From a virus (Duplodnaviria; Caudoviricetes): a stretch of 59,095 nt of DNA. The stretch spans positions 1-59,095 of IMG/VR virus record IMGVR_UViG_3300046169_000006; one strand, given 5' to 3'. Shown piece by piece: positions 25,530 through 50,759 of the stretch. The translations under genes were made by a program, and so were the position numbers. The notes under the pieces are model-generated. The model saw nothing but the letters and a program-made list of their open reading frames with translations, had not been told where the DNA came from and made no database searches. How positions within the stretch are numbered: position 1 is the first letter of the stretch; the number at the start of each line of letters is the position of its first letter.

Positions 25530-25554
25530 CTGAATAACTTATTAAGGAGTAATC

Positions 25555-28654: not shown

Positions 28655-28664
28655 GAGTAATGAT

Positions 28665-29813: not shown

Positions 29814-29816
29814 TGT

Positions 29817-30377
29817 ATGACAGCAAGAAATAACGCGTCGCTCATTGCGGCAGAACTTTCCAAAGATACAGGCTTTCAACGTGTAACGATCGACATCGAC
29901 CCAACGCAATGGTCAACTCGTCGTCGCAACATCATTTTACGGGCTCTCAGACACGGCATAACACAGTGTGGGTATGAGACAGGTTACTTTATTAAATGCC
30001 TGACCGAAGCATACGGCTCGTCCGTTGTTACTATGAACAACTGGACTCGAGACATTCCTGCTGATGCTGTGGACCCAGATAAGTTTGACGAACTCGTAGC
30101 CTATACCTGTGCTTGGGTTAAACTCAAAGCCGCAGGCATGAAGGCGGAAGACCTAGACTACTATAGTAGGTACACGCTCAACAACTGGGCGCATAATATT
30201 AACAACGGTCAACGCCCTTCGACGTTCCCAACTCCTGATATTAAAAGCGCGACCGAGAAAGCGCTGTTTATCAAGCAATACCTAAAGAAAGACGAAACTG
30301 AATTAGAGTTTCGTGAAGCCCTTGCCGCAAAGATAGAACGTGGTGAGATGTTATCCATTAGTATGAATGCCCGATAG
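29817..30377 (+). CDS. Hypothetical protein
   Basis: 186-aa ORF with GAGGAGTAA RBS. Confidence 0.75.
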   Translation: MTARNNASLIAAELSKDTGFQRVTIDIDPTQWSTRRRNIILRALRHGITQCGYETGYFIKCLTEAYGSSVVTMNNWTRDIPADAVDPDKFDELVAYTCAWVKLKAAGMKAEDLDYYSRYTLNNWAHNINNGQRPSTFPTPDIKSATEKALFIKQYLKKDETELEFREALAAKIERGEMLSISMNAR

Positions 30378-30387
30378 GAGGTGCATC

Positions 30388-31077: not shown

Positions 31078-31078
31078 T

Positions 31079-31206
31079 ATCTGGATGTGGTGTCATCATT
31101 CCTCAAGCAGGCGACCCGACGCGTCTGTATATGCCAGATCAGTAAGTATGACAAATAGAAGCCACCCAGACCGGAAATCTGGCAGTCGTCGGGACTAATT
31201 TATTTT
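31079..31206 (+). ncRNA. Candidate structured cis-regulatory RNA
   Basis: Four complementary segment pairs in ~115 nt, followed by a U-rich tract. Confidence 0.45.
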
Positions 31207-31216
31207 TAAGGAGATT

Positions 31217-31513
31217 GTGATGAAGACAAGTAAAAGAAGAAACCTATCCGCCAAAGCACGTGCGGCAGGTCTACCAGTTAACTGTGTTCTACAGCGTGTA
31301 CAACGCTTAGGTTGGAGCGAACATAAAGCCCTGACTACACCTGTAGGTAAGTATAATAAAAGTAATCGCGTCGTTCCGCCCGTGGAACATACGCCTGTAA
31401 CGACGGAACAACCGTCGTCGGCTATTTTTGACGCGCCTGTTCGGGCTAAGTTCGTCAAGTTAGCCGCTATAACTATCATCGTAGCCGTCATCGTATGGGC
31501 GGTCAACGCTTAG
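31217..31513 (+). CDS. Small HTH-like protein with C-terminal TM helix
   Basis: NLSAKARAAGL...RVQRLGWSEHKALTTPV; C-terminal LAAITIIVAVIVWAV. Confidence 0.65.
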   Translation: MMKTSKRRNLSAKARAAGLPVNCVLQRVQRLGWSEHKALTTPVGKYNKSNRVVPPVEHTPVTTEQPSSAIFDAPVRAKFVKLAAITIIVAVIVWAVNA

Positions 31514-31524
31514 GAGCGTATCTT

Positions 31525-33441: not shown

Positions 33442-33631
33442 TATCAAACGGATAATAGATTTTTAAAAATATATGATATTTATTATTACTAAACTGCCTA
33501 AATTGTTAGCGATAACGGTTAAATTTTAGGCAACAACCTACTTTCATGTTGAAAATAAGTGTTCATTATCAGTACAGATAGTGGCATACTAATACATATA
33601 CATGTAAGCTCATACCAAGGAAGGAAAGAGC

Positions 33632-34201
33632 ATGCCTAGCAATAAGAAGGGCATCAGCCCCCTAGCGGCTACAACAGAGCGTTTTTTACGGAACCCTGAT
33701 AAGGTTAACGACTGGTTAGTTATAACCGACAAACACATGCAGAGTTACGCAAACGATAAAGATTTGTTTGTGCTACCGAAACAACATGAGTTTATGGAGC
33801 CAGTGATAAAAGCCTACGCGCATGACCTTGCAGGGTTTGCGCAGTATTTGCTCGAACTGAGGGACAACTTCGACAAGAAGTCTCGACAGTTTGTGGACGT
33901 ACAAGCGGTATATCGCCGAGTTAACGGACGGCATGTACAGCAATCACGTCGTCAGCGGATAGCTAAGGCAGTAAAGAAAGCGGAGGAACTGTTTGGTGAA
34001 ATTGCATACACAAAACGTATGCAATGGATGGCTGAGTTAGAACATGAATGGGCACGACGACGACTAGCGTTTCTCGAAACACAACGCGAGCGACTGAAGC
34101 AAGAACGTCTATCGACGGAACTGCGAACAGAAATGCTCCTCGAGTTTTGGGAAATAATTGATACTGAGATTTTTATGGGAGAATTACCACCGTGGAACTA
34201 A
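33632..34201 (+). CDS. Hypothetical helical protein
   Basis: 189-aa ORF after an AT-rich intergenic region. Confidence 0.75.
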   Translation: MPSNKKGISPLAATTERFLRNPDKVNDWLVITDKHMQSYANDKDLFVLPKQHEFMEPVIKAYAHDLAGFAQYLLELRDNFDKKSRQFVDVQAVYRRVNGRHVQQSRRQRIAKAVKKAEELFGEIAYTKRMQWMAELEHEWARRRLAFLETQRERLKQERLSTELRTEMLLEFWEIIDTEIFMGELPPWN

Positions 34202-34857
34202 TAAAGGCTTGGAGTTATTCAGCCCTAACCGCGTTTGAAACTTGTCCGCGCCGCTTTGAGTTAACACGAGTTACTCGAGAGGTTAAGGAGCCGCAGACAG
34301 AAGCTACTATCTGGGGTAACGAGGTACACAAAGCATTGGAACTGTTTGCTAAAGACGGTAAGCCATTGCCCACTCACCTCAAAAAGTACGAGCGTTACGT
34401 AAAAAAGATTCTGTCCTATGAGGGAAAGCGTGTGATCGAACAACAGATCGCGCTCGACCGCAATTTCCGTCCTACTACATGGATGGCAAAGGACGTATGG
34501 GTTCGCGGCATCATCGACATCGGTGTTGTGGGTTCCGACAGAGCATACTTACTAGACTGGAAAACTGGTAAGCGTCGACCAGATACAGACCAACTCAAAC
34601 TATTCGCCGCACTAGCGTTCGCTGTGTATCCGTGGATAGATAAAGTTACGACTGGATTTATCTGGCTAAAGTCTGGAGAGTTTGATAAGCAGGTGTTTAC
34701 ACGTGAACAGTTACCAGAGATATGGAACGAATTTATGCCACGCCTAAAACGCCTAGCCATTGCCCACAACGAAGACAAGTGGACGCCCAAGCCTAGCGGA
34801 CTGTGTAAAAACTGGTGCCCTGTTGGTAAACACAACTGTGAATTCTGCGGAGTATAA
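34192..34857 (+). CDS. PD-(D/E)XK Cas4/RecB-like exonuclease
   Basis: WSYSAL..FETCPR, GNEVH, GIID, LDWKTGK, QLKLFA, C-terminal Cys cluster. Confidence 0.88.
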   Translation: MELIKAWSYSALTAFETCPRRFELTRVTREVKEPQTEATIWGNEVHKALELFAKDGKPLPTHLKKYERYVKKILSYEGKRVIEQQIALDRNFRPTTWMAKDVWVRGIIDIGVVGSDRAYLLDWKTGKRRPDTDQLKLFAALAFAVYPWIDKVTTGFIWLKSGEFDKQVFTREQLPEIWNEFMPRLKRLAIAHNEDKWTPKPSGLCKNWCPVGKHNCEFCGV

Positions 34858-34858
34858 A

Positions 34859-35032
34859 GTGGACAACATAAGAGACTTATCCATCGACAGACTGATGAAA
34901 CTAAACACCGAAGACCTGCTCATCCTAGCGTTGAGCCAGAGCAAACTCACTGGATTAGAGATAGAACTCCTTAATCGCTTAGAGCAATTCTTGTCTATGC
35001 ACGGAGACTACCTCGAGGAGACTCACCACTAA
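34859..35032 (+). CDS. Small hypothetical protein
   Basis: Fills the gap between the exonuclease and VRR-NUC genes; TAATG coupling; start uncertain. Confidence 0.5.
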   Translation: MDNIRDLSIDRLMKLNTEDLLILALSQSKLTGLEIELLNRLEQFLSMHGDYLEETHH

Positions 35033-35346
35033 TGGGTATGACACCTGAAGGTAAAGTCAAAAAGAAGTGTAAAGAGTATCTTCAACAGATCGGTGCTTGG
35101 TACTATATGCCTGTAAGTAATGGTATGGGGCGCGTTGGTTGTCCTGACATTCTGGTATGCCACAAGGGTTTATTCATGGCCTTTGAGACTAAGGCGCCGG
35201 GAAAGATAAAGAATGTTACGGCTAATCAAGAGCGTGAAATAACTGATATACAACGTGCTCACGGGTTAGCACTTGTTGTCGACGACGTCGAGCAAATGAA
35301 AGAGGCTATACATGACAAAATCAACGAAGCAGGAATTAAAGACTAA
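35032..35346 (+). CDS. VRR-NUC domain nuclease (resolvase-like)
   Basis: TPEGKVK, GCPDIL, AFETKAPG, TANQ. Confidence 0.88.
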   Translation: MGMTPEGKVKKKCKEYLQQIGAWYYMPVSNGMGRVGCPDILVCHKGLFMAFETKAPGKIKNVTANQEREITDIQRAHGLALVVDDVEQMKEAIHDKINEAGIKD

Positions 35347-35584
35347 AGCGGCTTACAACAAGAAGCCGAGCGTCCAGAAGAAACGCGTAGCTAATAACAA
35401 AGCACGCCGTGAAGCTATTAAGGATGGGCGCGTTAAGAAAGGTGACGGTAAAGATGTTCACCACAAGGTGCCATTAGATAAAGGTGGCAGTGATAAGAAA
35501 TCAAACACCAAAGTGGTTAGTAAGAAAACTAATCGCGGCTGGCGTAAGAAGAACCCTGAAATGTATACCAAGAGAGGTAACTAA
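35312..35584 (+). CDS. HNH endonuclease-like protein
   Basis: GDGKDVHHKVPL..GG....N.......NR. Confidence 0.8.
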   Translation: MTKSTKQELKTKAAYNKKPSVQKKRVANNKARREAIKDGRVKKGDGKDVHHKVPLDKGGSDKKSNTKVVSKKTNRGWRKKNPEMYTKRGN

Positions 35585-35997
35585 TGGACAACTCTGAAGA
35601 ACGAGTATGGGCATACCTACGGAAACATGGAGATTCCGTTGACGCTTTTGACGTGTCTATCAACTGTGACGTGCGGCAGAAAGATGCCGAAGATATTATC
35701 GCTAAGCGCAATGAGTTATTGAACAATGTGCCAACGCGATCACACAACATAGGTAAGTCAGACTACTCTAAATATAACATCCAACCGTGGGACATCTGGT
35801 TGGAGTATGACCTCAATCCGTGGGACGCAGACATTGTGAAGCGCGTCTTACGTGAGAAACCCGGAGAGCGTCGTCTCGACTACGAGAAGATCAAACATAT
35901 ATGCGACGAGCGCATACGACAAATCGACACCGGAGTAGCTGAGGATAAATGTTATGTTAATTTGGAAGAAGAAGAAAGCACTACTCTTAAAAAGTAG
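35584..35997 (+). CDS. DUF3310-like protein
   Basis: IGKSDY...IQPWDIW...ADIVKRVLR...DYEKIKH. Confidence 0.6.
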   Translation: MDNSEERVWAYLRKHGDSVDAFDVSINCDVRQKDAEDIIAKRNELLNNVPTRSHNIGKSDYSKYNIQPWDIWLEYDLNPWDADIVKRVLREKPGERRLDYEKIKHICDERIRQIDTGVAEDKCYVNLEEEESTTLKK

Positions 35998-37525
35998 AGA
36001 GCCTGATAGAATAACCAATGTGATACCCACCGCGAAGCAGTTCACGGTTAAAGGTACCCCATACGTGGCAGTCCCACATAAACTGACTGAGACTAAAGTT
36101 CTACGTAACTTAGGCTATGAGCCACCTGCTCCCATACGTGAGTACTACGAGTGGCCGGGGCGTTATAAGCCGTTCGACGCACAACGTGAAGCCGCCGCTT
36201 TCTTGTCTATGTATGATAGAGCGTTCAACCTGAGTGAGTTAGGGACAGGTAAGTCGTTGGCGTCGTTATGGGCGTACGATTACCTACGTAGCATCGGTCA
36301 TCTGAATAAGGTCTTAATAGTTTCACCACTATCAACGCTTGAGCGCACGTGGGCAGACGAAGTGTTCCAACACTTCCCACACCTTGAGTATGCTGTGTTG
36401 CACGGTTCCAAACAGAAGCGCATCAAACTTCTTAACACCGACGTGGATGTCTACATTATTAACCACGATGGACTACAGATCATCGAGCCGTTGTTAGCTG
36501 ACCGTCCAGATATCGACTTAGTTATTATCGACGAGATAGCACAGGCCGCACGTAACGCAGGCACTGATCGTTGGAAAGCTATTAACAAAGTAGTTAACCG
36601 CCACAAGACAAAGCGTGCTTGTTGGGGAATGACTGGTACACCTACGCCGAACGCACCTACTGATGCTTGGGCACAGACTAGGCTAATATCACCTAGCAAT
36701 GTACCGCCATACTTTAACCGCTTTAAAGGACAAGTGATGAAGCAGTTATCACAGTTCTCGTGGGTACCGAAGGAAGGAGCAACGGAGATTGTTAAAGATG
36801 TTATGCAACCCTCTGTTCGTTTCACCCGAGATGAGTGTGTTGATCTACCACCGCTAATGTATGAGACTCGTCAGGTTTCTCTGACTAAGGAACAGGACAA
36901 GGCTTATAAGGAGATGGTCGCAAGGATGCGCACCCAAGCAGAAGAGGGTGAGATCACCGCAGTAAACGAAGCCGTTAAGATGGGTAAGCTAGTACAGATT
37001 GCCTGTGGTGTTGTTTACTCTAATGATAAGGAGGAAGTGACAATACCCTCGACGCCTCGTGTAGAAGAAACACGCGAGATAGTACGCGCAGCGGAGGGCA
37101 AAGTTATTGTGTTCGTACCATACGTAAGTTCGGTCAACATGGTAGCAGAAGAACTGAGTAAAGACTTTACTGTTGAAGTCATTCACGGTGGAGTTAAGAA
37201 AGATGAGCGTGACCGTATATTTGGTGCGTTCCAAAAGAGTAAAGACCCTAAGGTTATCGTGGCTCAACCTGCCGCTATGTCCCACGGTCTTACATTGACG
37301 TCAGCATCTACCATCATCTGGTACTCATGTGTGACGTCAAACGAAGTATTCGAGCAGGCTAACGGTCGGATTAACAGGCCCGGCCAGAAGATGAATAACT
37401 TCATCATTATGTTAGAAGGTACACCAGTGGAGAAGCGTATCTACAGTCGACTGCGTAACAAGCAGAAGATGCAGGGTGCCCTACTCGACGAAGTGAAAGC
37501 ACATCGCGACGCTGTCATGTCTTGA
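35954..37525 (+). CDS. SNF2-family helicase
   Basis: ELGTGKS, IIDE, MTGTP, HGLTLT, QANGRINRPGQ. Confidence 0.92.
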   Translation: MLIWKKKKALLLKSREPDRITNVIPTAKQFTVKGTPYVAVPHKLTETKVLRNLGYEPPAPIREYYEWPGRYKPFDAQREAAAFLSMYDRAFNLSELGTGKSLASLWAYDYLRSIGHLNKVLIVSPLSTLERTWADEVFQHFPHLEYAVLHGSKQKRIKLLNTDVDVYIINHDGLQIIEPLLADRPDIDLVIIDEIAQAARNAGTDRWKAINKVVNRHKTKRACWGMTGTPTPNAPTDAWAQTRLISPSNVPPYFNRFKGQVMKQLSQFSWVPKEGATEIVKDVMQPSVRFTRDECVDLPPLMYETRQVSLTKEQDKAYKEMVARMRTQAEEGEITAVNEAVKMGKLVQIACGVVYSNDKEEVTIPSTPRVEETREIVRAAEGKVIVFVPYVSSVNMVAEELSKDFTVEVIHGGVKKDERDRIFGAFQKSKDPKVIVAQPAAMSHGLTLTSASTIIWYSCVTSNEVFEQANGRINRPGQKMNNFIIMLEGTPVEKRIYSRLRNKQKMQGALLDEVKAHRDAVMS

Positions 37526-37565
37526 CAGATGAACGCATATAAACTAATCTGTTTACAAGTGAACA
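37522..37565 (+). promoter_or_regulatory. Promoter of the alpA-like operon with operator
   Basis: TTGACA-N17-TAATCT; TGTTTAC-AA-GTGAACA at 37550-37565. Confidence 0.8.
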
Positions 37566-37581
37566 CATATAGAGGTAAAAA

Positions 37582-37785
37582 ATGAACTTGCTTAAACCTG
37601 AAGAGGTAAGTGAAAAACTTGGTATCACCAAGGCGGCGCTACCTGCGTTGCGAAGAAGAGAGACGACCTTCCCCCAACCCATAAAGGTATCACAGAAAGT
37701 ACTCAGGTGGGACGAGGAAGATATTGATAACTGGCTGAACTCAAAAAAGGAGAGTAACAATGGCGAAAGTCGGAGAACTGGATGA
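37582..37785 (+). CDS. AlpA/excisionase-like winged-HTH protein
   Basis: LLKPEEVSEKLGI...FPQPIKV....RWDEEDIDNWL. Confidence 0.85.
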   Translation: MNLLKPEEVSEKLGITKAALPALRRRETTFPQPIKVSQKVLRWDEEDIDNWLNSKKESNNGESRRTG

Positions 37786-38161
37786 TGAATCCTTAACAAA
37801 AATCTATATTGCCGCGCGCGATCGTCGTGCGCAACGGAAGGCGGCGTTCAACGACGACGACTCCGGAGATAAGCTGAAGCAAGAGAAGATCGAGATCGAG
37901 TTCTTGCGTAGGTTCCAAGACCGAGGAATAGACAGTGTGTCTATCCGTGGTGTAGGTACTGCTTACAGGTCAACACGTTCATCTGCTACAGTAGCGGATT
38001 GGGACGCGTTCTTAGACTATGTACGCGACAAAAACGCATGGGAACTCCTTGAGCGCCGTGTAAACAAAACTGCGCTTGAGCAGATCAAAGAAGTAGAAGG
38101 CGACTTAGCCCCCGGCACCAACTGGTCCGAGACTGTTGTCATCAACTTCCGCCGTAAATAA
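37760..38161 (+). CDS. Replication-module hypothetical protein
   Basis: GTAYRS...VADWDAF...LLERRV; lies before the SSB-like gene. Confidence 0.75.
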   Translation: MAKVGELDDESLTKIYIAARDRRAQRKAAFNDDDSGDKLKQEKIEIEFLRRFQDRGIDSVSIRGVGTAYRSTRSSATVADWDAFLDYVRDKNAWELLERRVNKTALEQIKEVEGDLAPGTNWSETVVINFRRK

Positions 38162-38177
38162 CTGAGAGGTAATAGAA

Positions 38178-39125
38178 ATGTCTAATGATATGGTTGCTAT
38201 AACAGCATCAAAACTTCCTGCCCACTTGGCAGGTAAAGTTAAAACTAACAACGTGTTTGCATCTGCGGTTTCCGTAGGCGGCTTTCCCGTTATTTCTATC
38301 AAGGGTAAAGTGTTCCACATCCAACGTGGTGACGAACGTACTCTTGTAACTAAAGACGACAGTGGCGACCCATCTGCCTCACTGGAAGCAGTGATTGTAG
38401 CGGTTAACCCTAACAAGTCTAAGGTATTCTACGACAGTGGTTATGAGGAAGGCAGTGTAGCTAAGCCAACTTGTTACTCTAACGATGGTATCCAACCTGC
38501 GTCAGACGCTGAAAACCCACAGGCAAACAAATGTGCGGCATGTCCAAACAACATGTGGGGTTCACGCATCACTGACAACGGCGGTAAAGGTAAGGCTTGT
38601 GGCGACTCTATGCGTCTAGCTATTGCGGCTCCAGATCAACTGAATGACCCTATGTTACTTCGTGTACCTGCGGCGTCACTCAAAACTCTTGGGCAGTACG
38701 GACAGCAACTCGCCAAGCGCGGTGTAGAACCTCACCACGTTATCACTAAGATCGGGTTTGACTACAACGTTGCCCACCCCGCGTTGACGTTCAAGGCGGT
38801 TCGGTTCGTCGAAGAAGCTGAGTTAATAGAAGTAGAAGCAACGCTGTTGGATGAAGAAGAAACCATCACACAGATCACTGGTATTGCTAACCCCAACACA
38901 CCAGAGATTGAGCACAAAGCGGCGGAGCCTGCACCTGCACCTAAACCTAAGCCTAAGCCTGCTCCTAAACCTGCACCTGCTCCTAAGCCTGCTCCTGAAC
39001 CAGTGGTCGAAGCTACGCCTGAACCTGTAGTGGAAGCCGCACCTGAGCCTAAGCCTGCACCTGCAAAAGTTGACGATTACGACAGTATAGACGAAGCATT
39101 AGATAACTTGGACTTTGACGACTAG
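38178..39125 (+). CDS. ssDNA-binding/annealing-like protein with Pro-rich linker and acidic tail
   Basis: CAACP.N.WGS, GKAC, LRVPAASLK; PAPK repeats; C-terminal LDNLDFDD. Confidence 0.7.
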   Translation: MSNDMVAITASKLPAHLAGKVKTNNVFASAVSVGGFPVISIKGKVFHIQRGDERTLVTKDDSGDPSASLEAVIVAVNPNKSKVFYDSGYEEGSVAKPTCYSNDGIQPASDAENPQANKCAACPNNMWGSRITDNGGKGKACGDSMRLAIAAPDQLNDPMLLRVPAASLKTLGQYGQQLAKRGVEPHHVITKIGFDYNVAHPALTFKAVRFVEEAELIEVEATLLDEEETITQITGIANPNTPEIEHKAAEPAPAPKPKPKPAPKPAPAPKPAPEPVVEATPEPVVEAAPEPKPAPAKVDDYDSIDEALDNLDFDD

Positions 39126-39142
39126 TCATCGCCGTTCGTTGG

Positions 39143-39169
39143 TAAAGGGGGCTTGCCCCCTTTATTTTT
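39143..39169 (+). terminator. Rho-independent terminator
   Basis: TAAAGGGGGC-TT-GCCCCCTTTA followed by TTTTT. Confidence 0.8.
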
Positions 39170-39199
39170 CTGTTAACACGTAACTTTAAAGGTAACGGC

Positions 39200-42148
39200 A
39201 TGGGTACACAAGAGTTCCTAAAATTAGTCCTGCCGTCAACAGGACAGGCCGTACTTGGTTTGGTCCAAGTAAATGACGATGGTAGGTCATGGTTTAAGTG
39301 GAAGAATTATCCCAGTGCTGATGAGGCCGCGAGAGCAGCTTTGTTCTTCGACAGTAAAGGAGAGACTGTCTATTTCGGAGTAAACTCATTTGGTGACTGG
39401 TACGATGACGAGAAGACAGGCAAACGCCGCATTCGTACGCAAGATAATGTGGTGGCGTGTCGCTCGCTGTTCGACGACTTTGACGTCGATGTAGATAAGA
39501 GAGACGCGTACGATACAAAACAAGAAGCACTTCAAGGTGCCATAGAACTTGCTAAGGCTATACGATTGACCCCATCAATCGTGAACTCCGGTGGAGGCTA
39601 CCACAGCTACATCCACCTTGATGAAGATATTACTCCTGAGGCATGGGAAGAGTTGTCCGCGATGAAGCGTGACATCACAATGCACCTTGGGATACTTGCA
39701 GACCGCGCGGTAGACAGTGATACAGCACGTATCTTACGTCCCATCGGTGTGCACAATAGAAAGTATACTCCACCTCGCCTAGTTGAACTAGTTAAAGAGG
39801 GAAAGGTTTACTCAGTTGATACTGTACGGACCAAACTCCAAGAGTATATAAGAGATAACAATGTACAACCTGCTCCTACTACACGTAAGGCAGGGGCTGT
39901 TAACCCATTCGCCGCCGCACTAGGCGATCACCCTGATAGCGACGCCGAAGCCGTAGCACGTAACTGTGCGGCAGTTCGTGAGTTTAAAGAGTCCGGTGGC
40001 AACATAGCGGAACCTCATTGGCATCGTGCGATTGGGGTGGTTAAATTTTGTACAGACGGCGAGGCGAAAATCCACGAGTGGAGTGAAGGCTACGAAGGTT
40101 ACTCACAGGCTGAGACGCAAGAGAAGATTGATGAATGGACAGTAGGTCCCACGTCATGCGTTGAGATGGATAGACACGTCGGGTGTATGAAAGACTGTCC
40201 GTTCGCTGATAAGTGTAAGTTCCCTCTACAGCTAGGCTTTACAGAGGATGCAGAGTCCGTCGCCGAGCCTACCGTCGCCGTTGACGACGCGCAAGAAGAG
40301 GAAACGACGAAGCCGAATACAGTTATCGAAGGGCAAACAATCCCTTGGTGGCCGCAGTCTGGCTATCGTTGGAATGGTTCTGCTCTGTCACGTTCGTATG
40401 TAGACGAGGACGGCGTTGTTCATTGGACACCGTTCTGTAGGTCATTCATCTACCCCATCAACCGCATCCAAGACAGTGAAGGTACTTGGGTAATCCACTG
40501 GAGAGCACTTGAGAAGAACGGTAAGTGGCGTGAGTTCTTCATGCCTATGCACGAGTTAGCATCAACCGACCTTATGGCTAAGACACTTGCATCGTACGAG
40601 GTGTTCCTAACGCGCTCCAAAAGTTCGAGGAATTATATGGCTGAATTTGCAGAAGGTTTGATTGAGACACTACAGGCTTGGCGTATCGAGACCAAGACGT
40701 TCACTCAGTTTGGTTGGCTTAAAGACCGCACAGGATTTGTTCTAGGCACCAAGCTACTTACACTAGATGATGAGCATGAGGTTCTGTGTGACCCTGCTAT
40801 CCCCACGGATATCGCCGTCGACTTTGGACGTAGCGGTACACTCGAGGAATGGATCGCTAACATAGATACGCTGTATAACCGCAAAGGCGCTGAGCCATTT
40901 CAGTTTGCACTGTGTCACTCAATGGGTTCAGCACTTGTAGAGTTAATGGGTAGTAGTAACTGGCACGGTTTACCCTTAGCGTTCACTGGACATGGTGGTA
41001 CTGGTAAATCTACTGCCGCTAAGATTGCTTGTGGATTCTATGGCAACCCAGAGTTCATGGAACGCCAGACAGGTGAGCAAGGCTCCACGCTGAATGCGGC
41101 TATCAAACGTATCGCTATCATGGGTTCTATCCCTGTACTCCTTGACGAGTTCTCAGGTAGATCACCAGACGAACTTACACGAACAGGTTATGCGTTAGCT
41201 AACGGACGTGATAAAGAGCGACTAGGTACAAATGGTAAGTTCAGTACTGTTGGTGGCCAGTGGTTTAAGAACAGCTTCATCACATCCAATGACTCCATCA
41301 TGGAAAGTATCAGTAAGCTACCGGCAGGTTATAGAGTTGAAGCCACGCAGTTACGTTTCTTTGAGGTGTCACTGCCTGCTGATTACAGGAACAAAACGTT
41401 CCCAGATATTTCACAGTCCTTTGTAGAGAACCACATGGACAATGTGTACGGCGAGGCTTGTGTTCCATACTTGCGATTCATCATTAAGAACCAAGACTGG
41501 GTACGTCGCCAGATGGTATCAGCACGTAGCAAGTTTAACCCTGAGTCTGAGGATGATAACAAAGAGCGCTTCTACCGAGACACGATCGTAACCGCCATCG
41601 TGGCAGGTAAGATTGCTGAGAAGTTAGGACTGATAAACTTTGACCTCAAAGGTATGAAGCAGTGGGCAATGAACCAAGTGCTGACAATGCGGGAGAACCG
41701 GAAAGAGAACAACACGGATATTAGTGAACAAGTCGCGGCGTTTATCGCAACACTTCCCGGCCGTCTTATCATCACGAAGCACTTCGGTGATAGTCGGGCT
41801 AAGGTTAAAGAAGCCCCTATGGAGTTCTTACGTGGTCCTGCTGTCGGTCGTGTTTGTACAGATGATAAGAAAGTGTACGTCACTGTCAAAGCAATCGCTG
41901 ACTGGTGTAAGGAGCATGGAGTAGCACCTGCCGCTATCCGAGAGGAACTAGACAAAGCAGGCTACCTAATCCACCAAGCCGATGGTTCATACAATCCACG
42001 GATAACTCTTGGCTCGGGTACTACAGTCCCCAGTGGTCAGGCTAGATGTTATGAACTCAAGTACTCCAAGTTCTTCGACGGCAAAGCATTAGCACTTGTC
42101 GAGACAGAAGACGGCGTAGTGACAGAGACACAACTAGACCATGAATGA
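39200..42148 (+). CDS. Primase-helicase (AEP/RepB-like N-terminus, DUF927-type helicase)
   Basis: DDFD, NSGGGYHSY, RILRP; Cys cluster; FGW, GTLEEW; Walker A GHGGTGKS; LLDE. Confidence 0.88.
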   Translation: MGTQEFLKLVLPSTGQAVLGLVQVNDDGRSWFKWKNYPSADEAARAALFFDSKGETVYFGVNSFGDWYDDEKTGKRRIRTQDNVVACRSLFDDFDVDVDKRDAYDTKQEALQGAIELAKAIRLTPSIVNSGGGYHSYIHLDEDITPEAWEELSAMKRDITMHLGILADRAVDSDTARILRPIGVHNRKYTPPRLVELVKEGKVYSVDTVRTKLQEYIRDNNVQPAPTTRKAGAVNPFAAALGDHPDSDAEAVARNCAAVREFKESGGNIAEPHWHRAIGVVKFCTDGEAKIHEWSEGYEGYSQAETQEKIDEWTVGPTSCVEMDRHVGCMKDCPFADKCKFPLQLGFTEDAESVAEPTVAVDDAQEEETTKPNTVIEGQTIPWWPQSGYRWNGSALSRSYVDEDGVVHWTPFCRSFIYPINRIQDSEGTWVIHWRALEKNGKWREFFMPMHELASTDLMAKTLASYEVFLTRSKSSRNYMAEFAEGLIETLQAWRIETKTFTQFGWLKDRTGFVLGTKLLTLDDEHEVLCDPAIPTDIAVDFGRSGTLEEWIANIDTLYNRKGAEPFQFALCHSMGSALVELMGSSNWHGLPLAFTGHGGTGKSTAAKIACGFYGNPEFMERQTGEQGSTLNAAIKRIAIMGSIPVLLDEFSGRSPDELTRTGYALANGRDKERLGTNGKFSTVGGQWFKNSFITSNDSIMESISKLPAGYRVEATQLRFFEVSLPADYRNKTFPDISQSFVENHMDNVYGEACVPYLRFIIKNQDWVRRQMVSARSKFNPESEDDNKERFYRDTIVTAIVAGKIAEKLGLINFDLKGMKQWAMNQVLTMRENRKENNTDISEQVAAFIATLPGRLIITKHFGDSRAKVKEAPMEFLRGPAVGRVCTDDKKVYVTVKAIADWCKEHGVAPAAIREELDKAGYLIHQADGSYNPRITLGSGTTVPSGQARCYELKYSKFFDGKALALVETEDGVVTETQLDHE

Positions 42149-43543: not shown

Positions 43544-43734
43544 AATGTTACCTAGAATGTTACCTAAAAAATGAGAGTGATGAGTCGTGCAGGGTGCTAA
43601 GTGCCTGTAATCATTGAATAATGTATGAGGAATGTGGCGGACAGACAGGGATTCGTGCTATCTGTTTACGTGTTTGTTTTCAATAGGTTAACAGATACAA
43701 AAACAAGAATGTTACCTAGAATGTTACCTAAAAA
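43544..43734. mobile_element. attP: tRNA-3'-end core flanked by arm-type repeats
   Basis: 27-bp AATGTTACCTAGAATGTTACCTAAAAA at 43544-43570 and 43708-43734; core 43635-43655 reads CGAATCCCTGTCTGTCCGCCA on the minus strand; IHF-like TTTCAA-TAGG-TTA at 43678-43690. Confidence 0.88.
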
Positions 43735-43800
43735 GAGGCCCGACCTGAAGGAGTAAAACAAGTCGGGCCTTAGGTGTCACAAGGGGGAAACGTCCGTGAC
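43730..43800 (-). terminator. Two tandem hairpins ending in an intrinsic terminator; candidate sRNA
   Basis: GUCACGG/UUGUGAC stem with loop ACGUUUCCCCC; AGGCCCGACUUG/CAGGUCGGGCCU stem with loop UUUUACUCCUU; then CUUUUU. Confidence 0.8.
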
Positions 43801-43814
43801 TACTTCAAGGTAAA

Positions 43815-46800
43815 CTATTCAAATCTTTTCTTCGCTTTACTTTCCCGCTTCCATTGCTGCATTGGAGCTTTGTACAAATCACCGATATTCTGGCGTCTCA
43901 AGGCTGATGGGTCCTTACCAAAGAACGGTCGCACTCTATCTTTTTGTTTCTGCAAGTCACGGAACTCATCGCGCAACTCAGACATGGTGCTTTTATCTTT
44001 GGCTCGTGAAGCGTCAATGTACTCTCTACGAATACGACTTGTCTGCTCGCTAAAGTATGCGCTCAACTCGTACTGCTGACTTCTTGTCCACTTAATCTTG
44101 TTGATCTCACTGGCTGGTAGCCCAAGGGCATTGACTAACAAACTGCCAATGTTCACGTCTCTAGGGTCTACTACCACGTCGCCGTTCTTAAACGAAACGC
44201 CTTCTGTCCCTATTCTATACGACTCGATAGCGGTTCGTATACCTTTTGGTACCATATATTCTATGGCTTTTAGTGGATCGCCCTGCCCAAAGTACTCGAC
44301 AGAACGCGTGAAGTTAATAGCAGTAGTACCAGATGGACCGGCTGCAAGGTTAAACACAAGGTCTTTTACGCCATCCTCAGACACATCGTAATCAAGGTAT
44401 GGGAATGGGTCGAATATCTTACCTTGGCTTAACTTAGTCGACATGTCGATACCAACGAAGTTGAATACCCCTTTGGATAACACCTCGCCCATCTTGCCGG
44501 GAACTTGTGTTTGAATCCAGCGATCTAGGTCTTCTGGCTCATCTTCCCCAGAGAACAAGAATACTAGGCCAGCTAAGGTTCCTACCAGTGGGATACCTGT
44601 AACACCGGCAAAGATACCTGCGTGAGCAGTCATGTAAGCTAGGGTACGCATACCCATCGCTCGCATCTCTTTACTCTCACCTTTAAACGATTGCTTAGCG
44701 GCGTTAACGTAAGCCCACACCATCATAAACTGGTACTTTCGATACTGGGTGGTTAGTTTAGGTAGTTTCTTAATAATTAACGGAGCATCCATACGAGAGA
44801 AGTTACCCTGCGTATCTTCCACCACACTGATTGCGTACTCAGCAGGTGTCATCCCCTGTCGTCTAGCCACTTGAGGTTTTGCTGTTGCCAAGTCAAACGC
44901 GGCTACCGCCGATGAAATACGGTTATGGGCTTCGACCAATCGCGCCGCTTGGTACAGTTTGTGTGTAATCATACCTAGCTTGTCGGACGCTACGTTCAGT
45001 GCCTCGTACCCTGTATTGAAACGATCGAAGGATGACAAATCTTCTTCCATACCAACGTCTAGTAAGTTCCGTAACTGAAGTTCTTCGAGGAGTGCTTTGT
45101 ACTTCGATGGTACTTTATCTAAGTCAATCTCAGTCTCAAATTTCTTAGTCATCCTAGCTGAACCAATGGCGACTTTGTACCCACGTGTTAGCTTATTCCA
45201 TGCCCCCGCGTAATCTCCGAAGTCACCTGCTAATCGTGGAACTGTAACCATCGCAGGCTGAGTGGCGTTCGTGACGTGATAACCGATACTAGATGTCAGC
45301 ATGTACACAGAGTTAAGAGCGGCGACACGGTCTTGGATACGTTGGAATAATGTATCTTGGTAGATAAGGGTATCTTTGTAGTGAGCCACCAACATGTTAT
45401 ACACAGGGCTAAGGGCTTCACGGTCTTGCTCAGTCTGTTTCTGCGCCTCTGCCAGTGCCATGTTAATTTCTGCACCATGCTCCATCGTAGAGATCATAGC
45501 TGCTTCTGCTCTTGCGTGAGACAAGAACGAGCGGACCATGTTCGTTTCATAACCTGCACGGTTCTTACGTTTAGCACCTGACACTCTTGCATCTCTCTCA
45601 TCCAGAGAGTCGAAGTACATATCGCGTACCATCTCAGCAAAGGCTTGTTTAGACGCCGCATCTATCTGGTTTGCATCCGCCGCCTTTAGTGCACCGAGTA
45701 CTCTCTGGAACACTTCTGGGTTACTCACTCTATCAGACATCAAGTCTTCTGTTCGTTCTGACGGTACTGCGTATGCGAACTTTCCTTTACTCGCCTCAGT
45801 AAACTTCTTAGCCGCACCCATAGTGTCGAAGAAACTTACCACATAGTCGCTTGGACTAGACTTTAGGTCTTCCACGGCTTTACGTGTTGCTTCGGTAGAA
45901 TCCTTCGCGTCTTGTGCTTCTGCATCAAGGAGTGCTTGTGATTTTAAGACCCCAGCGTAACCACCAAAACGTTTCAGTGGAGCATAAGGCCCCTCTAGTT
46001 CTGCGGCACTAAAGAAACTTCTAGGAACATCTAGCAACTTAGCAACTGCTTGTTTGCGCAAGCGCATGTTTTCGCCGTGTTGGAAGATATCCCGAACAAG
46101 GGCTTGCTCTACAGGGCTAAGGCGGTTGAACTTCTGTTGCATCACAGGGTCAACTTTTATAGCACGTACATTCCCATCAACATCAGTGAACTGTGGGTCG
46201 TAGCCCCACTTCTGGAAGAACGTAGACTTACTGATAAAGTCGTTAACAGCAGCTAATCGCTCAGGCTTTATCTCTCTGGCCCGTACTGCAATAGCTTCCA
46301 CCTGACGTCGTATATCTTGGCGCGTCTTATCAGCTTCTTTAATTGCCTGATACATTCTACCTGCCGCAGGCATACGACCTTTAACTTCACGAACAAATTG
46401 ATGGAGGAACTTGAGAGACTGCGTCGCACCTCTCGATACTTCAGCCAAATCATCAAGGGCTTGTTTAGCTGTTGGCCCCATGTTCTTACGGACCCACTCA
46501 CCTTTACGGTTATGCTCTTCTTGCGACGCGGGTGTAGGGTTTACAGAACCCGCCATAGTATCTGACTGGTAGTCTGTGTTGTCGTTGATAGGGTCACGAA
46601 GGTTTGCGTTCTTAACTTTACCTAAGTACTCCACAAAGGTGGTGCTCGGGAGATAGTCTTTATTGGCAAGTTTATCGTAGAAACTCTTCATTGCTTTACC
46701 TAGGCGAGAGAAGAACTTCTCTACCGCACTTACAGGCGCTTCTTGCGTTGTTGCCCATCGTGATACTTGGTCAGCATACCACTCGTTAAATGACTTCCAG

Positions 46801-49800
46801 TAGGGAGCCACTTGGTTGAACGGAATGTCTGGAGTGCTTGTCGTCTTGCCTGTCTTTCTAGCACGTAGTGCTTCCACAAGACCTTTAGCTGACTTCGTTG
46901 TTTGTTCACGTAACCACTTGCCATGCTCTTCAACAAGCTGCTTCTGCATCTCTGGAGGTGCTTGGTCAAACACTTCCTTCTGGTGCACGTGGCCCATTTC
47001 GTGAGCAATAGTTTCTAGGACTGCGATCTTAGATGCTTGTTCGTCGTAGATGATGTAGTGGCTGCCGTCAGGTAAACGACGCGTCGAACCACGCTCACTG
47101 GCATCTAGTGTTCCAGAACCAACGGCTCTGAGTGGCCCTGTGAAGTTTAGTTTGTCAGCCCGCGCATCGTCTAGTGTTGTAACATATACATCCGCACCCA
47201 GACCTAGTTGGGCTTTCCACTCGCGAATAACACCTTGTGTCTCAGGGCTTACATTGTCAGAGAACGCGAGGCCCTCTTCGTAAGTTACGTAAGGCTGTTC
47301 GTCGTGTATGCGTTGCGCTTCGGCCTCTGCGTCTTTCTTAGCTTGAACCAGACTCGCTACTTGCTCTGGAGTAAACTCGTTCCCCACATAACTTTCAACG
47401 TCGACGTTTGTAAACATGGTACCCTTAGCCGCGACGTATACAGGAGCACCAGTAATGGCACTGTACCCACGTACAAGAGCGATATCACCTTCTTGGTAGA
47501 CAACTTCACCACCGATCTTTTCGGCGACGGCATCTACAGCGTTTAACTCAGATTCTTTCGCTTTACGCTTAGCTTCGGGGGCTTCTTCAGGATTCTTTGG
47601 AGGCTTGACTACGCGACGTTTCTTCTTGGTAACAACTGGCACCTTCGCCGCGCGGGCATTTTGTTCCTCAGCACTTAGCTGTTGAGCTTCTGGCTCGGCG
47701 ACTTCAGGTTCAGTCCGAGTTTGTTGTACTTCTCCGCCATCTTGGCTAGACGCTTCTTGGTTTCCTTGGCTTTCAGCTTGTCCGACGCTGTCGGTTGTTT
47801 CAGTATTGTTTTGGGCATCTTTAGTATCCTGTATATGTTCACTGCGCAGTTGGTCAAAATAAGCGGCTAACCCGTCTTCATCCAAGTCCCCCATTTGGAA
47901 CTCTGTATGGTAACTAAGCCACTCGAAGCGATACCCTGCGTCCATGTCATCAAACTTTACGTTACCATCTTTCTGTGTAGATTCAAACTTACCCCATGCA
48001 CGCGCCGCAGGTTTGTAAGCACTGTCCGCTTTCATCTCTGCATCATGCTGGGCGCGAACTGCCGAAAGCTCGTCCGTCGTCTGTTGCTGTATTGGCGTTT
48101 CTTCCTGCGATTGGGTGTAGGCGCGGTCTTCTGCACTTACGTCAGTGTAAGCACCTTGATTAGGAGAAGCCAGTGTCTCCATACTGTTCCCGACTTCTTG
48201 AACTTCTAGGGCCGCTTCGTTGGCGTTGAGATCAAGGGCTTCAACATTTTTAACCCGCGTGGCTCTTAGCCCCGCCTGAATCGCGGCAACGTCTCCTTTT
48301 CCATCAGCACCGATAACACCATTCTCTTTGGCGATCTTCTCCAGTACACGGCCTACTTGTTTAGCAACTGTTCCTTTACCTACACCTGCTAGGTCTGCAA
48401 TTACCGCATCGTTCCACTTGCCGTTAACTTGCAGAACTTTGTCTATTTCATCGTTGTTAATAGCGTCACGGATGACATCAAAAATTCTCTTCTGGGCTTT
48501 AGGTAACGCTAGGTCTTCAGGGATAGAGACTGCTTCTGCATCTAGTGCAGGTTCTTCCTGAGTACTTTCGTCGGTCGTTTGCGCTGCGGGCGCCTCTGCA
48601 ACGACGGGTTCTACCGGAGCAGGTACATCTTCTGCTACAGTTTCAGTCGGAGCTGGTTGCTGTTTGTATAAGTCGTCGACGGTATTCTGGAACGCGTTGT
48701 ACTTTCTAGCGGCTAAGGTTTCGACCAACTCAGGGTTCGTTTCGCGCCAGTTATTACCTAACTTCTCTGTGGCGTAACTTATAGCCTGACCTTCTATACC
48801 TGCCACAGGCTCAGGTGCAGTCTCAGCCGCAGGCTCTGCTACAGTTTCTTCAAGGGGCGATGTAACTTCTGGGAGGGCCGCCGCTTTCTCTGCAACTATC
48901 TTGTCTAGCATAGTCTCGAAGCGTGACTTCCTGCCGCCACCTTTGGAATACATGCCACGGCCATCAGCCGCTAACTGGGATAATGACGGCTCGTCTTGCT
49001 CCCAAGTCTCTCCAAGCAGTTCACGAGCCTTCTCAATAAGTTGTTCTTTCTTTGTAGCAGGTTTCTTTGACTTAGATTCTTTCTCTGACTGAGCAGGTTC
49101 CGCCACGGGGGCAAGGTCTGGTAGATCAAGGCCCATAGCCGCCTGACGCATCTGACCTATTACAGCAGCTACTTGGGGGTCTAGGGCTGCACTTGCTTCG
49201 TTGAAGGCGTCATCATCTAACTGTAAAACCTCAGGTGTCGCATCGACCACACTCTTGGCCTGTGCAACAGTTTCTACGTGCGCGTCTAACCCAGATACGT
49301 ACTCTGCTTCAAACTGCGCTGAAGCATCATTTTCTTTCTGGTAGCTTTTGACATAAGTCTTTGCTGCTTTCTGTATATCTACAGGGTCAAAGATTTCTTG
49401 CTCATCCAGAAAGGTTTCAAAGTTCTGCCCAATCTCAGTCTCTGGGTTGAGAACGTCTACTTCAAGCGCCTCTGTGGCTTCAGCTTGACGTGCTTTGATA
49501 AACTCATCGCGGGGTGTGTACGTAGAAGCTGCTTCACGGCGTGTTCGTCCACGAGCGGTTCTCTCTGCTTTCTCTTCTAGGGCCTGCTTTTCGGCTTGCG
49601 CTTTCGCCACCTTGGCGTCTTCTTGCGCTTGCGCCTCTAGGGCAGCATCTTCTTCTAACTCGCGTACATAGTCGGCTTCTTCCTTGGCAGCCACAGCTTT
49701 ATTAACAGCACGGTTAGACCTAAACTGCGTGGCGGCACTCATCGAACCACCCATTCCCATACCAGTAAAGCCGCCAATAACAGCAGAACTACCGACGTCT

Positions 49801-50759
49801 TCGTAAAACGGCTTGTCATTGCCTAGGTTCGTGAAGCCTTGCTCTTGGCCACTCTGTAAAAATTCTTCCGCGCCTTCTACAGCTAGGCCTCTACCTGTAG
49901 ATTTTATAATACTGCCCTTACCCACTTCATCGATAAGGTCTTTGACTCCGCCAGCTGCGGCAGTATCTATGTCCATTTTATTAAACTTCGCACCGCCACG
50001 GGAGATTAGACTGGTTCCTATCCCTGCTGCGGCGCCGTACAAACGGTCATTGCTGTAGTCTGTCCCGATACCATCGTAGTCTTGGCGGACAATGTTAGCT
50101 ACAGCATCACCCCCAGCGACAGCACCCTCACCAATGGCACCGGCAGTCATACCACTGATAGGTTTTAACCCTGCGCCTTTAGCGGTTAACTTAACACCTT
50201 TACCTATAACACCACCCGCAAAGATATGAGGTACTGTCTGGCCTATAAGGTTAAATATCTGGGATGGGTTCTCTCCAATGTACTCTGCGGCTTCCCCACC
50301 TTGCGACACCATAGTGTCATAGATGTGGTACATCTTGTCACCCATACTCGCGTCATCAGGCAACGTATCAACTGTCGCAGCGGCTTCTTTAATACGTTGG
50401 CCTAACTCTGCGTTCTTATTTTGTTGAAAGTCAGATAGAAGTTTCTCATCACCATACTCCCCCAAGTCATACAGACCTTGAGCGATAGGGTCAGCAACAT
50501 AGTGAAGCCCGTCGACAAGACTACCTAGAGAGGTAACGGCGCCAAGGGCTTTGGGTATACCTGTGAGAACACTTGCCCCAACGTCAGCCGTTCTGCGTAA
50601 AAATCCGGGGTCCTCAACTTCCACTTTAGACTGCTGGGATTCATACTTTTCGAGCAGCTTCTTTTGCTGATCGCTTAGACCCGTGTTGCTATCATCCTGC
50701 ACTGGCTGCTGATTTTGGTACTTCTCGATAAGGGCCTTCTGCTGTTCCGTAAGTGCCAT
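43815..50759 (-). CDS. Large polyvalent internal virion/ejection protein (zincin-like HExxH and PLxRFG domains)
   Basis: 2314 aa; IAHEMGH..E; YAPLKRFG; last gene of the late arm. Confidence 0.8.
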   Translation of the reverse strand: MALTEQQKALIEKYQNQQPVQDDSNTGLSDQQKKLLEKYESQQSKVEVEDPGFLRRTADVGASVLTGIPKALGAVTSLGSLVDGLHYVADPIAQGLYDLGEYGDEKLLSDFQQNKNAELGQRIKEAAATVDTLPDDASMGDKMYHIYDTMVSQGGEAAEYIGENPSQIFNLIGQTVPHIFAGGVIGKGVKLTAKGAGLKPISGMTAGAIGEGAVAGGDAVANIVRQDYDGIGTDYSNDRLYGAAAGIGTSLISRGGAKFNKMDIDTAAAGGVKDLIDEVGKGSIIKSTGRGLAVEGAEEFLQSGQEQGFTNLGNDKPFYEDVGSSAVIGGFTGMGMGGSMSAATQFRSNRAVNKAVAAKEEADYVRELEEDAALEAQAQEDAKVAKAQAEKQALEEKAERTARGRTRREAASTYTPRDEFIKARQAEATEALEVDVLNPETEIGQNFETFLDEQEIFDPVDIQKAAKTYVKSYQKENDASAQFEAEYVSGLDAHVETVAQAKSVVDATPEVLQLDDDAFNEASAALDPQVAAVIGQMRQAAMGLDLPDLAPVAEPAQSEKESKSKKPATKKEQLIEKARELLGETWEQDEPSLSQLAADGRGMYSKGGGRKSRFETMLDKIVAEKAAALPEVTSPLEETVAEPAAETAPEPVAGIEGQAISYATEKLGNNWRETNPELVETLAARKYNAFQNTVDDLYKQQPAPTETVAEDVPAPVEPVVAEAPAAQTTDESTQEEPALDAEAVSIPEDLALPKAQKRIFDVIRDAINNDEIDKVLQVNGKWNDAVIADLAGVGKGTVAKQVGRVLEKIAKENGVIGADGKGDVAAIQAGLRATRVKNVEALDLNANEAALEVQEVGNSMETLASPNQGAYTDVSAEDRAYTQSQEETPIQQQTTDELSAVRAQHDAEMKADSAYKPAARAWGKFESTQKDGNVKFDDMDAGYRFEWLSYHTEFQMGDLDEDGLAAYFDQLRSEHIQDTKDAQNNTETTDSVGQAESQGNQEASSQDGGEVQQTRTEPEVAEPEAQQLSAEEQNARAAKVPVVTKKKRRVVKPPKNPEEAPEAKRKAKESELNAVDAVAEKIGGEVVYQEGDIALVRGYSAITGAPVYVAAKGTMFTNVDVESYVGNEFTPEQVASLVQAKKDAEAEAQRIHDEQPYVTYEEGLAFSDNVSPETQGVIREWKAQLGLGADVYVTTLDDARADKLNFTGPLRAVGSGTLDASERGSTRRLPDGSHYIIYDEQASKIAVLETIAHEMGHVHQKEVFDQAPPEMQKQLVEEHGKWLREQTTKSAKGLVEALRARKTGKTTSTPDIPFNQVAPYWKSFNEWYADQVSRWATTQEAPVSAVEKFFSRLGKAMKSFYDKLANKDYLPSTTFVEYLGKVKNANLRDPINDNTDYQSDTMAGSVNPTPASQEEHNRKGEWVRKNMGPTAKQALDDLAEVSRGATQSLKFLHQFVREVKGRMPAAGRMYQAIKEADKTRQDIRRQVEAIAVRAREIKPERLAAVNDFISKSTFFQKWGYDPQFTDVDGNVRAIKVDPVMQQKFNRLSPVEQALVRDIFQHGENMRLRKQAVAKLLDVPRSFFSAAELEGPYAPLKRFGGYAGVLKSQALLDAEAQDAKDSTEATRKAVEDLKSSPSDYVVSFFDTMGAAKKFTEASKGKFAYAVPSERTEDLMSDRVSNPEVFQRVLGALKAADANQIDAASKQAFAEMVRDMYFDSLDERDARVSGAKRKNRAGYETNMVRSFLSHARAEAAMISTMEHGAEINMALAEAQKQTEQDREALSPVYNMLVAHYKDTLIYQDTLFQRIQDRVAALNSVYMLTSSIGYHVTNATQPAMVTVPRLAGDFGDYAGAWNKLTRGYKVAIGSARMTKKFETEIDLDKVPSKYKALLEELQLRNLLDVGMEEDLSSFDRFNTGYEALNVASDKLGMITHKLYQAARLVEAHNRISSAVAAFDLATAKPQVARRQGMTPAEYAISVVEDTQGNFSRMDAPLIIKKLPKLTTQYRKYQFMMVWAYVNAAKQSFKGESKEMRAMGMRTLAYMTAHAGIFAGVTGIPLVGTLAGLVFLFSGEDEPEDLDRWIQTQVPGKMGEVLSKGVFNFVGIDMSTKLSQGKIFDPFPYLDYDVSEDGVKDLVFNLAAGPSGTTAINFTRSVEYFGQGDPLKAIEYMVPKGIRTAIESYRIGTEGVSFKNGDVVVDPRDVNIGSLLVNALGLPASEINKIKWTRSQQYELSAYFSEQTSRIRREYIDASRAKDKSTMSELRDEFRDLQKQKDRVRPFFGKDPSALRRQNIGDLYKAPMQQWKRESKAKKRFE

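Follow-up and report, generated by a model that had tools for sequence, protein, structure and literature searches.

Are the two hairpins at the end of a phage late operon a transcription terminator only, or are they also a regulatory RNA? The question is raised by a 59,095-bp viral record of the Caudoviricetes, IMGVR_UViG_3300046169_000006, which is complete (CheckV completeness 100%) and which is called the window here over its whole length. The late operon ends just before the hairpins, and the attachment site and integrase gene (attP-int) of what is a temperate phage come after them. An earlier reading of the letters alone, the original prediction, took them for a small RNA derived from the 3′ end of the last late gene, with loops that resemble the anti-Shine-Dalgarno (anti-SD) tail of 16S rRNA and that would silence early translation in trans. 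As we discuss below, the analysis supports an element of the RNA, specific to one strand, in which the late operon ends; its stems covary, and relatives keep a pyrimidine-rich loop motif. We tentatively read the element, at just under an even chance, as the conserved 3′ end of the late transcript acting as a small anti-SD regulatory RNA. The more specific claim of early-gene silencing was not borne out beyond controls, as shown further on.

Both hairpins were found on the minus strand with the G-U pairs that their stems had been said to need (Table 1). Hairpin 2 has a stem with eight G-C pairs, a U tract directly after it and a position 44 nt past a same-strand stop codon, as expected of an intrinsic terminator. 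Folded alone it reaches -21.7 kcal/mol with a loop unpaired probability of 1.00, and its 11-nt loop (43748-43758) is the 16S tail ACCUCCUU short by one base. The loop of hairpin 1 (43783-43793) is a degenerate copy of the (C)CCUCCC loop of relatives. The loop of hairpin 2, like the 6-17 nt loops of relatives, departs from the short loop (3-8 nt) of intrinsic terminators; a terminator consensus scan missed hairpin 2 because it allows loops of 3-8 nt only, and the terminator was detected by a home-made hairpin finder. The motif is found in one of six terminator-like hairpins of the window, and the 16S-tail motif GAUCACCUCCUU occurs in candidate host genomes. No sigma-70-like site is listed just upstream on the minus strand, in agreement with the predicted lack of a promoter of its own. 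By position and by its putative seed the element would fit the class of trans-acting small RNAs derived from 3′ untranslated regions (UTRs): its terminator is held in common with the mRNA, its loop motif is kept and its stems vary.

The orientation of the element needs separate mention. A 96-nt stretch of the minus strand folds better than any of its 200 shuffles (z = -4.7, 0/200), and the plus strand folds nearly as well (z = -3.8). Folding by itself hardly tells the strands apart, and the minus strand is therefore assigned from the gene upstream, from the U tail and from the G-U pairs that relatives keep.

Table 1. Positions of the two-hairpin element, of the features around it and of candidate pairing sites, in the numbering of the window
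Feature	Position	Strand	Description
Leader UUUACCUUGAAGUA	43801-43814	minus	single-stranded, from stop codon to hairpin 1; mean unpaired probability 0.53
Hairpin 1, GUCACGG + loop ACGUUUCCCCC + UUGUGAC	43776-43800	minus	7-bp stem, two G-U pairs
Hairpin 2, AGGCCCGACUUG + loop UUUUACUCCUU + CAGGUCGGGCCU	43736-43770	minus	12-bp terminator stem, one G-U pair
U tract CUUUUU	43730-43735	minus	completes the terminator of hairpin 2
Giant late gene	43815-50759	minus	open reading frame, 2314 aa; stop codon TAG at 43815-43817
Direct repeats, two perfect, 27 nt	43544-43570 and 43708-43734		each a tandem of AATGTTACCTAG-like 12-mers
tRNA-Ser(GGA) 3′-end identity, 22 nt	43634-43655		between the two 27-nt repeats
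Tyrosine integrase, 427 aa	42247-43530	minus	DUF6538-type N-terminus; same strand as giant gene
Six early ribosome-binding sites, (A)GGAGTAA(T) type	24266, 25113, 25546, 26599, 28654, 29807 (span 24266-29813)	plus	candidate targets
Ribosome-binding site of 244-aa late gene 9279-10013	10015-10025	minus	candidate pairing site; AAGGAGTAAAA, 11/11, -13.0 kcal/mol

Relatives of the element were reached through the giant gene upstream. The C-terminal 400 residues of its product, and then an alignment of six such sequences, were used as queries; 6 and then 25 loci were retrieved from viral contigs and 49 from metagenome contigs (identity 42-80%), all of them uncultured and from marine viral and metagenome sources. 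One locus with too short a flank (L190) and five in which the match stops before the C-terminus (L210, L211, L213, L214, L216) were dropped before the counts, and the 72 usable loci gave 44 distinct 3′ flanks of the giant gene. Genes were called and hairpins found with simple home-made tools. A terminal perfect hairpin of at least 7 bp is present in 40 of the 44 flanks. CCUC, CUCC or UCCU occurs in 32 of these 40 terminal loops, 36 of them are at least 80% pyrimidine, and the mean loop pyrimidine content is 0.92. The background for comparison was 120 Rhodobacterales-type loci (852 kb) searched with the same finder: the motif is carried by 3/186 terminator-like hairpins, the mean loop pyrimidine content is 0.52, and 5/116 loops of at least 6 nt reach 80% pyrimidine. 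Free drift of the loop, set beforehand as the test of the original prediction, was not seen. Of 15 hairpin clusters, 12 retain the CU-rich core (Fisher p = 3e-14 vs background) while the exact loop varies and the stems covary. At the level of sequence, these counts show an exposed, 16S-tail-like pyrimidine loop motif under selection.

The motif is repeated and varied within the element. In the closest lineages the loop of hairpin 2 still has UUACUCCUU or UUAACUCCUU, and most relatives have a third CU-rich motif in the leader after the stop codon, for example UUUUCUCCCC or GUUCCCUCCC. In hairpin 1 the automatic caller found the loop motif in at least 13 of the 40 flanks, hairpin 1 being mis-called in a few rows (e.g., L023, L030). 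L015 and L016 have only UAUCCAUU, and CUCUC replaces the core in part of one large subclade. In that subclade (L020-L027, L033, L193-L208) hairpin 1 is the sequence-conserved UGGUACU[GGCUUAA]AGUACCA, which follows UCGCUCGCC and has no CU motif; this conserved hairpin falls in the first ~30 nt past the stop codon. Hairpins with anti-SD loops are not enriched genome-wide over shuffles in six phage genomes, and such loops are therefore not a general habit of these genomes. Three of 30 records of cultured distant relatives were inspected (PBC5, Atu_ph08, POI1126; 22-26% identity), and none of the three has the element after its DarB-like gene. A 98%-identical contig, X16, has no difference from the window at 43708-43839 among those listed, and nothing is drawn from it.

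The stems were compared in an 11-sequence MAFFT alignment with the structure written by hand. Paired cells make up 97.1% of this alignment, a level that 0/500 shuffles reach, and the covariation score is 0.519 vs 0.248 (again 0/500). When partners are slid by 1-3 columns, pairing falls to 23-54%. Changes on both sides are found at 7/16 pairs, a count reached by 38/500 shuffles; helix 1 is 92% paired with 3/6 pairs changed on both sides, and helix 2 is 100% paired with 4/10. An earlier alignment of nine sequences had compensatory change at 7/11 pairs of hairpin 2. One pair of hairpin 2 is GU in 7/11 rows and G-U pairs are frequent across relatives; the strand is fixed because pairs are kept through G-U. 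The counts for hairpin 1 come from alignments A4 and A5 only; the MAFFT alignments A2 and A3 had hairpin 1 out of register, as do L009 and L172 still in A4.

We built a covariance model on the 11 sequences; searched against 52 sources, it gave 34 matches, at most one per phage genome save a weak second match in L010 (15.1 bits, E = 0.58). All matches except that one lie at the end of the giant gene, and the sole match in the window is at 43730-43812 (61 bits, E 1.5e-12). In the 34 model-fitted sequences, an alignment that leans towards the model, 95.2% of cells are paired and double changes are found at 14/16 pairs; helix 1 is 94% paired there, with 6/6 pairs changed. The best score of the model on four Rhodobacterales genomes was 29 bits (E 0.002 per genome), and no host homologue was found among them; six host-genome hits that were folded are ordinary terminators without the loop motif. 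In two Rhodobacterales genomes (L217 at ~1500-1570, L218 at ~1500-1560) weak hits of the model contain CACUCCCUG or CCACCUCCCUG in small hairpins or single strands before ordinary terminators, and these stretches may be host 3′-UTR anti-SD stretches.

A regulatory RNA of the kind that we tentatively favour would work as follows. Hairpin 2 and the U tract would stop late transcription before attP and the integrase gene, and the leader and the two loops would display pyrimidine-rich copies of the anti-SD tail. A stable fragment of ~85 nt would accumulate, either as an untrimmed mRNA end or as a piece cut by RNase E, as with the CcsR RNAs discussed below. The fragment would pair in trans with the SD regions of host and/or phage mRNAs and so damp translation late in infection.

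Several observations weigh against such a role. Hairpin 1 of the window is weak (-5.2 kcal/mol), its minimum-energy fold pairs part of the presumed loop, and that loop is without a CUCC core. Among relatives, the strict 4-mer core is missing from 8/40 terminal loops, L188 and L192 have no element, and L189 has a weak model match only. The terminator loops of L011 (with L012 and L178) and L215 are without the motif, but these relatives have UCCUCCC in the loop of hairpin 1. Because the relatives share ancestry, independence is overstated by the shuffle tests. The element stays below the gathering score of every Rfam family, and six genomes yielded no target whose extended pairing is conserved.

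RNAs with a similar design are known from bacteria. Cuckoo RNAs consist of two to four adjacent hairpins with CCUCCUCCC in each loop; their stems are rich in compensatory changes, only the loop being conserved, and two-hairpin forms predominate in Rhodobacteraceae (PMC4615179). The cuckoo family (RSs0680) overlaps the Rfam family ar14 (RF02344), and release by RNase E out of longer transcripts and binding by Hfq and/or CcaF1 are counted among its traits (PMC4615179). CcsR1-4 have two such hairpins each and are cut by RNase E from the ccaF1 3′ UTR next to U residues (PMC8034643). The phage element resembles these RNAs in its two adjacent anti-SD-loop hairpins, a number within the cuckoo range, and in its compensatory stems. 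The CcsRs need no promoter of their own, which fits a promoterless phage element, and cuckoo-type RNAs are common in Rhodobacteraceae, the likely host group of the phage. The differences are as clear. Neither loop of the window is CCUCCUCCC; among 40 distinct relatives the full 9-mer is present only in the hairpin 2 loop of L206, although several have the 7-mer UCCUCCC. The window gave no match to ar14 at E up to 10. The phage element is single-copy and follows a gene for a giant virion protein, not a DUF1127 (ccaF1-type) gene; a search of the phage for DUF1127 (PF06568) at E up to 1 gave no match, so that the conserved neighbourhood CIN1, next to such a gene, is not reproduced. In the phage, moreover, the second hairpin is itself the terminator. 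Because the loop motif differs, no DUF1127 gene is present and no convincing host counterpart was found in four Rhodobacterales genomes, we file the element, by analogy, as one that may work like a cuckoo RNA and not as a member of the cuckoo family.

The Rfam families that score nearest, all below threshold, point in a similar direction. The best match of the window, over the full model, is to mmgR/suhB (RF00519; 25.7 bits, gathering score 41), followed by the Betaproteobacteria toxic small RNA (RF02278; 16.7 bits, gathering 50) and RsaA (16.6 bits, gathering 50). Relatives L003 and L002 reach 32.2 and 29.1 bits with ar14 (gathering 58.8), and L007 reaches 29.2 bits with anti-hemB (RF02837; gathering 49.5). 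It is telling that these are all small RNAs with C/U-rich anti-SD stretches or C-rich loops. MmgR/alpha-r8 (RF00519) and the phage element both have a UUUCCUCCC-type stretch before a GGCCCG-type terminator, but the score is under threshold and comes from the terminator together with a short run of C/U, and the genomic context is another. Staphylococcus RNAIII, RsaA and other Rsa RNAs (UCCC loops) likewise have C-rich loop seeds that pair with SD regions; they belong to an unrelated lineage, have promoters of their own and are not mRNA 3′ ends. The cuckoo report discusses them as convergent with cuckoo RNAs (PMC4615179). RF02278 and anti-hemB, to which the matches are weak, are short RNAs in which CU-rich single strands lead up to a GC-rich terminator. 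The Betaproteobacteria toxic small RNA and the anti-hemB RNAs are toxic through SD pairing. Phages also have factors that block ribosome-binding sites (RBSs) of their own genes, namely the c4 antisense RNA of P1 and P7, the CI antisense RNA of P4 and the RegA protein of T4. The c4 and CI RNAs match their targets specifically and over long stretches, and the lysogen makes them; RegA is a protein. None of them is a terminator loop, and the analogy is functional only. Our literature search found no description of a phage-borne cuckoo-like or anti-SD terminator RNA; the word 'phage' is nowhere in the main text of the cuckoo report, whose supplementary locus lists might include prophage loci (PMC4615179).

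If the hairpins were a plain terminator, they would end late transcription and shield the 3′ end of the mRNA, and their pyrimidine loops would be kept for a reason other than RBS pairing, such as the binding of a host RNA chaperone or another protein or the avoidance of SD-like purine loops. This is unlikely, though it is a serious possibility. Hairpin 2 has every feature of a terminator, hairpin 1 and the leader set it at a distance from the stop codon that fits the need for separation from a terminating ribosome reported in PMC4824070, and hairpin 1 of one large subclade is without any anti-SD motif; a conserved specific target is, as said, wanting. A plain terminator accounts poorly, however, for the contrast with the ordinary terminators of the likely host group, which almost never carry the motif or such pyrimidine-rich loops. 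Nor does it account for loops of 6-16 nt, which are costly for a terminator and are kept nonetheless, or for a motif that recurs up to three times per element. The surroundings of the element bear on two other explanations. Upon read-through the anti-SD loops could pair in cis with the RBS of the next gene, here the integrase gene, as a retroregulation-like safeguard dependent on integration. The terminator is indeed directly upstream of attP and a same-strand integrase gene, integration would shift the element ~59 kb from int, and one subclade has a strong SD with its start codon right after the U tract. We nevertheless regard a cis role as quite improbable: the start region of int in the window has a weak SD and is ~200 nt away, and the element is kept where the integrase gene is convergent or absent. 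It is followed by a same-strand integrase gene in the window, L009, L010, L023 and L030, by a convergent one in L011, L013 and L014, by a phosphoesterase gene and then an integrase gene in L016, and by a small open reading frame or a convergent primase gene, with no integrase gene, in L020, L027 and, by the layout of its open reading frames, L028. The types of attP vary among these relatives as well. As the element is kept across such differing downstream genes and attP types, it belongs to the transcript of the giant gene and not to attP. A site that acts as DNA, for example one that binds an accessory protein at attP, is disfavoured and highly improbable, even though the element adjoins a 27-nt arm-type repeat of attP; pairs maintained through G-U work on one strand only, a U tail follows the stem, and the element follows the giant gene through four downstream contexts and several types of attP.

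The original prediction went further in proposing that the 3′-end RNA silences the early RBSs of the phage itself. Its RBS matches were in part borne out. GGAGTAA is located 3-8 nt before all six early starts named there (24280, 25123, 25555, 26610, 28665, 29817) and before the late start 10013, the six early sites are complementary to the hairpin 2 loop over 7-9 nt, and the full-length match at the late gene was confirmed. The product of that late gene, 244 aa, gave no match in a PHROG search. The RBS (T)AGGAGTAAT is common to six of the first nine early genes, late genes having mostly GGAGG, and the closest relative keeps a GGAGTAA-type early RBS at only some orthologues. The fit that had been noted between the hairpin 1 loop and G-rich RBSs proved to be at the level of chance, with 11 complements at up to 2 mismatches vs 11.8 expected; the site near 17030 matches at only 9/11 and none is listed near 3110. 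In the whole genome GGAGTAA is present 14 times vs 7.5 expected (4/100 shuffles reach 14), and the 11-mer of the hairpin 2 loop has 3 sites with at most one mismatch vs 1.2 expected (10/100 shuffles reach 3).

Target preference was compared in six genomes with crudely called genes. The hairpin 2 loop of the window has a perfect complement of at least 7 nt in 8/61 of its own RBS windows, vs 7/61 for the generic 16S tail; the same loop has one in 6/59 RBS windows of the closest relative, G001, and in 0-2 of each of four others. Its binding energy follows generic SD strength (rho = 0.63). An RNA that out-competes the 16S tail at GGAGUAA-class early RBSs, and so substitutes for an early-to-late translational repressor, would be in keeping with three observations. 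At 9/61 genes the loop binds more strongly than the 16S tail, with a margin of at least 2 kcal/mol, and five of these genes are in the block 24280-31077 (Fisher p = 0.002); at GGAGG-type late sites the advantage is with the ribosome (e.g., 27623, -14.5 vs -8.0; 50770, -12.3 vs -8.0); and the closest lineages keep their loop sequences. The preference is not beyond that of control loops, however: when flanks are shuffled around an unchanged CUCC core, at least nine genes are reached in 55/500 trials. Nor was a match between loop and early RBS reproduced in relatives. In G001, which is 79% identical and has nearly the same loop, its own loop is favoured at only 4/59 of its own genes, none of the five relatives compared, the other four genomes included, prefers its own RBSs, and the genes with the strongest extended matches in the window are not orthologues of those in G001. 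At 29807-29813, at least, the TAA of the RBS is simply the upstream stop codon. Silencing of the phage's own early genes is thus possible in this lineage but has no support beyond that expected of any CUCC loop, and we consider it distinctly unlikely; that the element stands in for a protein repressor is pure conjecture. Bolder still, and rather improbable, would be a general scheme in which marine phages of unrelated groups have independently made the terminators of highly expressed operons into mimics of the 16S tail. Here the mimic would be tuned, through UUACUCCUU, to beat the ribosome at GGAGUAA early RBSs and to spare GGAGG late sites, an RNA-only early-to-late switch that would do the job of the RegA protein in T4.

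If instead the element acts as its anatomy suggests, as a small anti-SD RNA, phages would carry their own versions of host-type anti-SD riboregulators. Such a riboregulator, set into the terminator of the late operon, would cost the phage nothing extra, and the control of translation by phages would gain a level that consists of RNA, through host shut-off or through early/late switching. It would also bear on whether cuckoo RNAs are global or specific repressors, a question raised in PMC4615179. With 15 hairpin clusters that have covarying stems and with the covariance model, the anti-SD question becomes testable.

The C-terminal third of the giant gene's product matches phrog_30335 (4.7e-41) and phrog_10089, 'DarB-like antirestriction' (1.4e-24), and resembles DarB-like antirestriction/PLxRFG giant virion proteins; a Pfam search of the 2314-aa protein gave no match. 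Distant tblastn matches (21-26% identity) are to DarB-like/PLxRFG giant protein genes in ~60-kb phages, and the phages with these matches are those of Sinorhizobium, Agrobacterium, Ochrobactrum, Erwinia, Klebsiella, Pseudomonas and Vibrio. The ~1500 N-terminal residues of the protein are uncharacterised.

The two strands of the genome divide the work. Late and structural genes are on the minus strand (23620 to 1 and 59063 to 42247), and early and replication genes are on the plus strand (24280 to 42148). The left end of the record interrupts a minus-strand late-gene open reading frame (3-1574), and with the record cut inside this gene the genome is presumably circularly permuted or circular. 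The stretch 43544-43734 and the integrase gene look like a complete attP-int module, in which the 27-nt repeats resemble integrase sites of the arm type; the second repeat shares its end with the U tract of the terminator. Exact copies of the 20-mer core of attP are found in at least 120 genome stretches, and among the listed stretches 54/80 titles name Rhodobacterales taxa, the genera being ones that we take to be Rhodobacterales. Because the attP matches a tRNA-Ser(GGA) 3′ end, the host is probably a marine roseobacter, which is likely but not proven. DNA of the phage was found in seawater and viral metagenomes from 18 studies. A blastn search (word size 11) of a phage DNA collection gave no match, a protein-alignment search of genome contigs gave 57 pattern hits, 0 relatives and no prophage copy with a named host, and the integrase as query retrieved one locus only, on the contig of L009.

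Two plus-strand readings of the hairpins were rejected. AAGGAG as an RBS has no start codon within 5-12 nt, and the sole open reading frame, 43774-44079, begins with GTG at a distance of 20 nt and is antisense to the giant gene. GGA loops of the CsrA type would need the plus strand, and the RNA is assigned to the minus strand by its G-U pairs and its U tail. The attachment sites of relatives are of diverse kinds. In L013, L014 and L032, ~200-300 nt past the element, a convergent integrase gene is accompanied by an attP that bears a tRNA-like or tmRNA-like 3′ end, and L004 has a weak Rfam tmRNA match. In L020, L027 and L028 the integrase gene is missing and the giant gene faces a convergent primase gene. 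Temperate and possibly lytic forms thus seem to alternate within the lineage.

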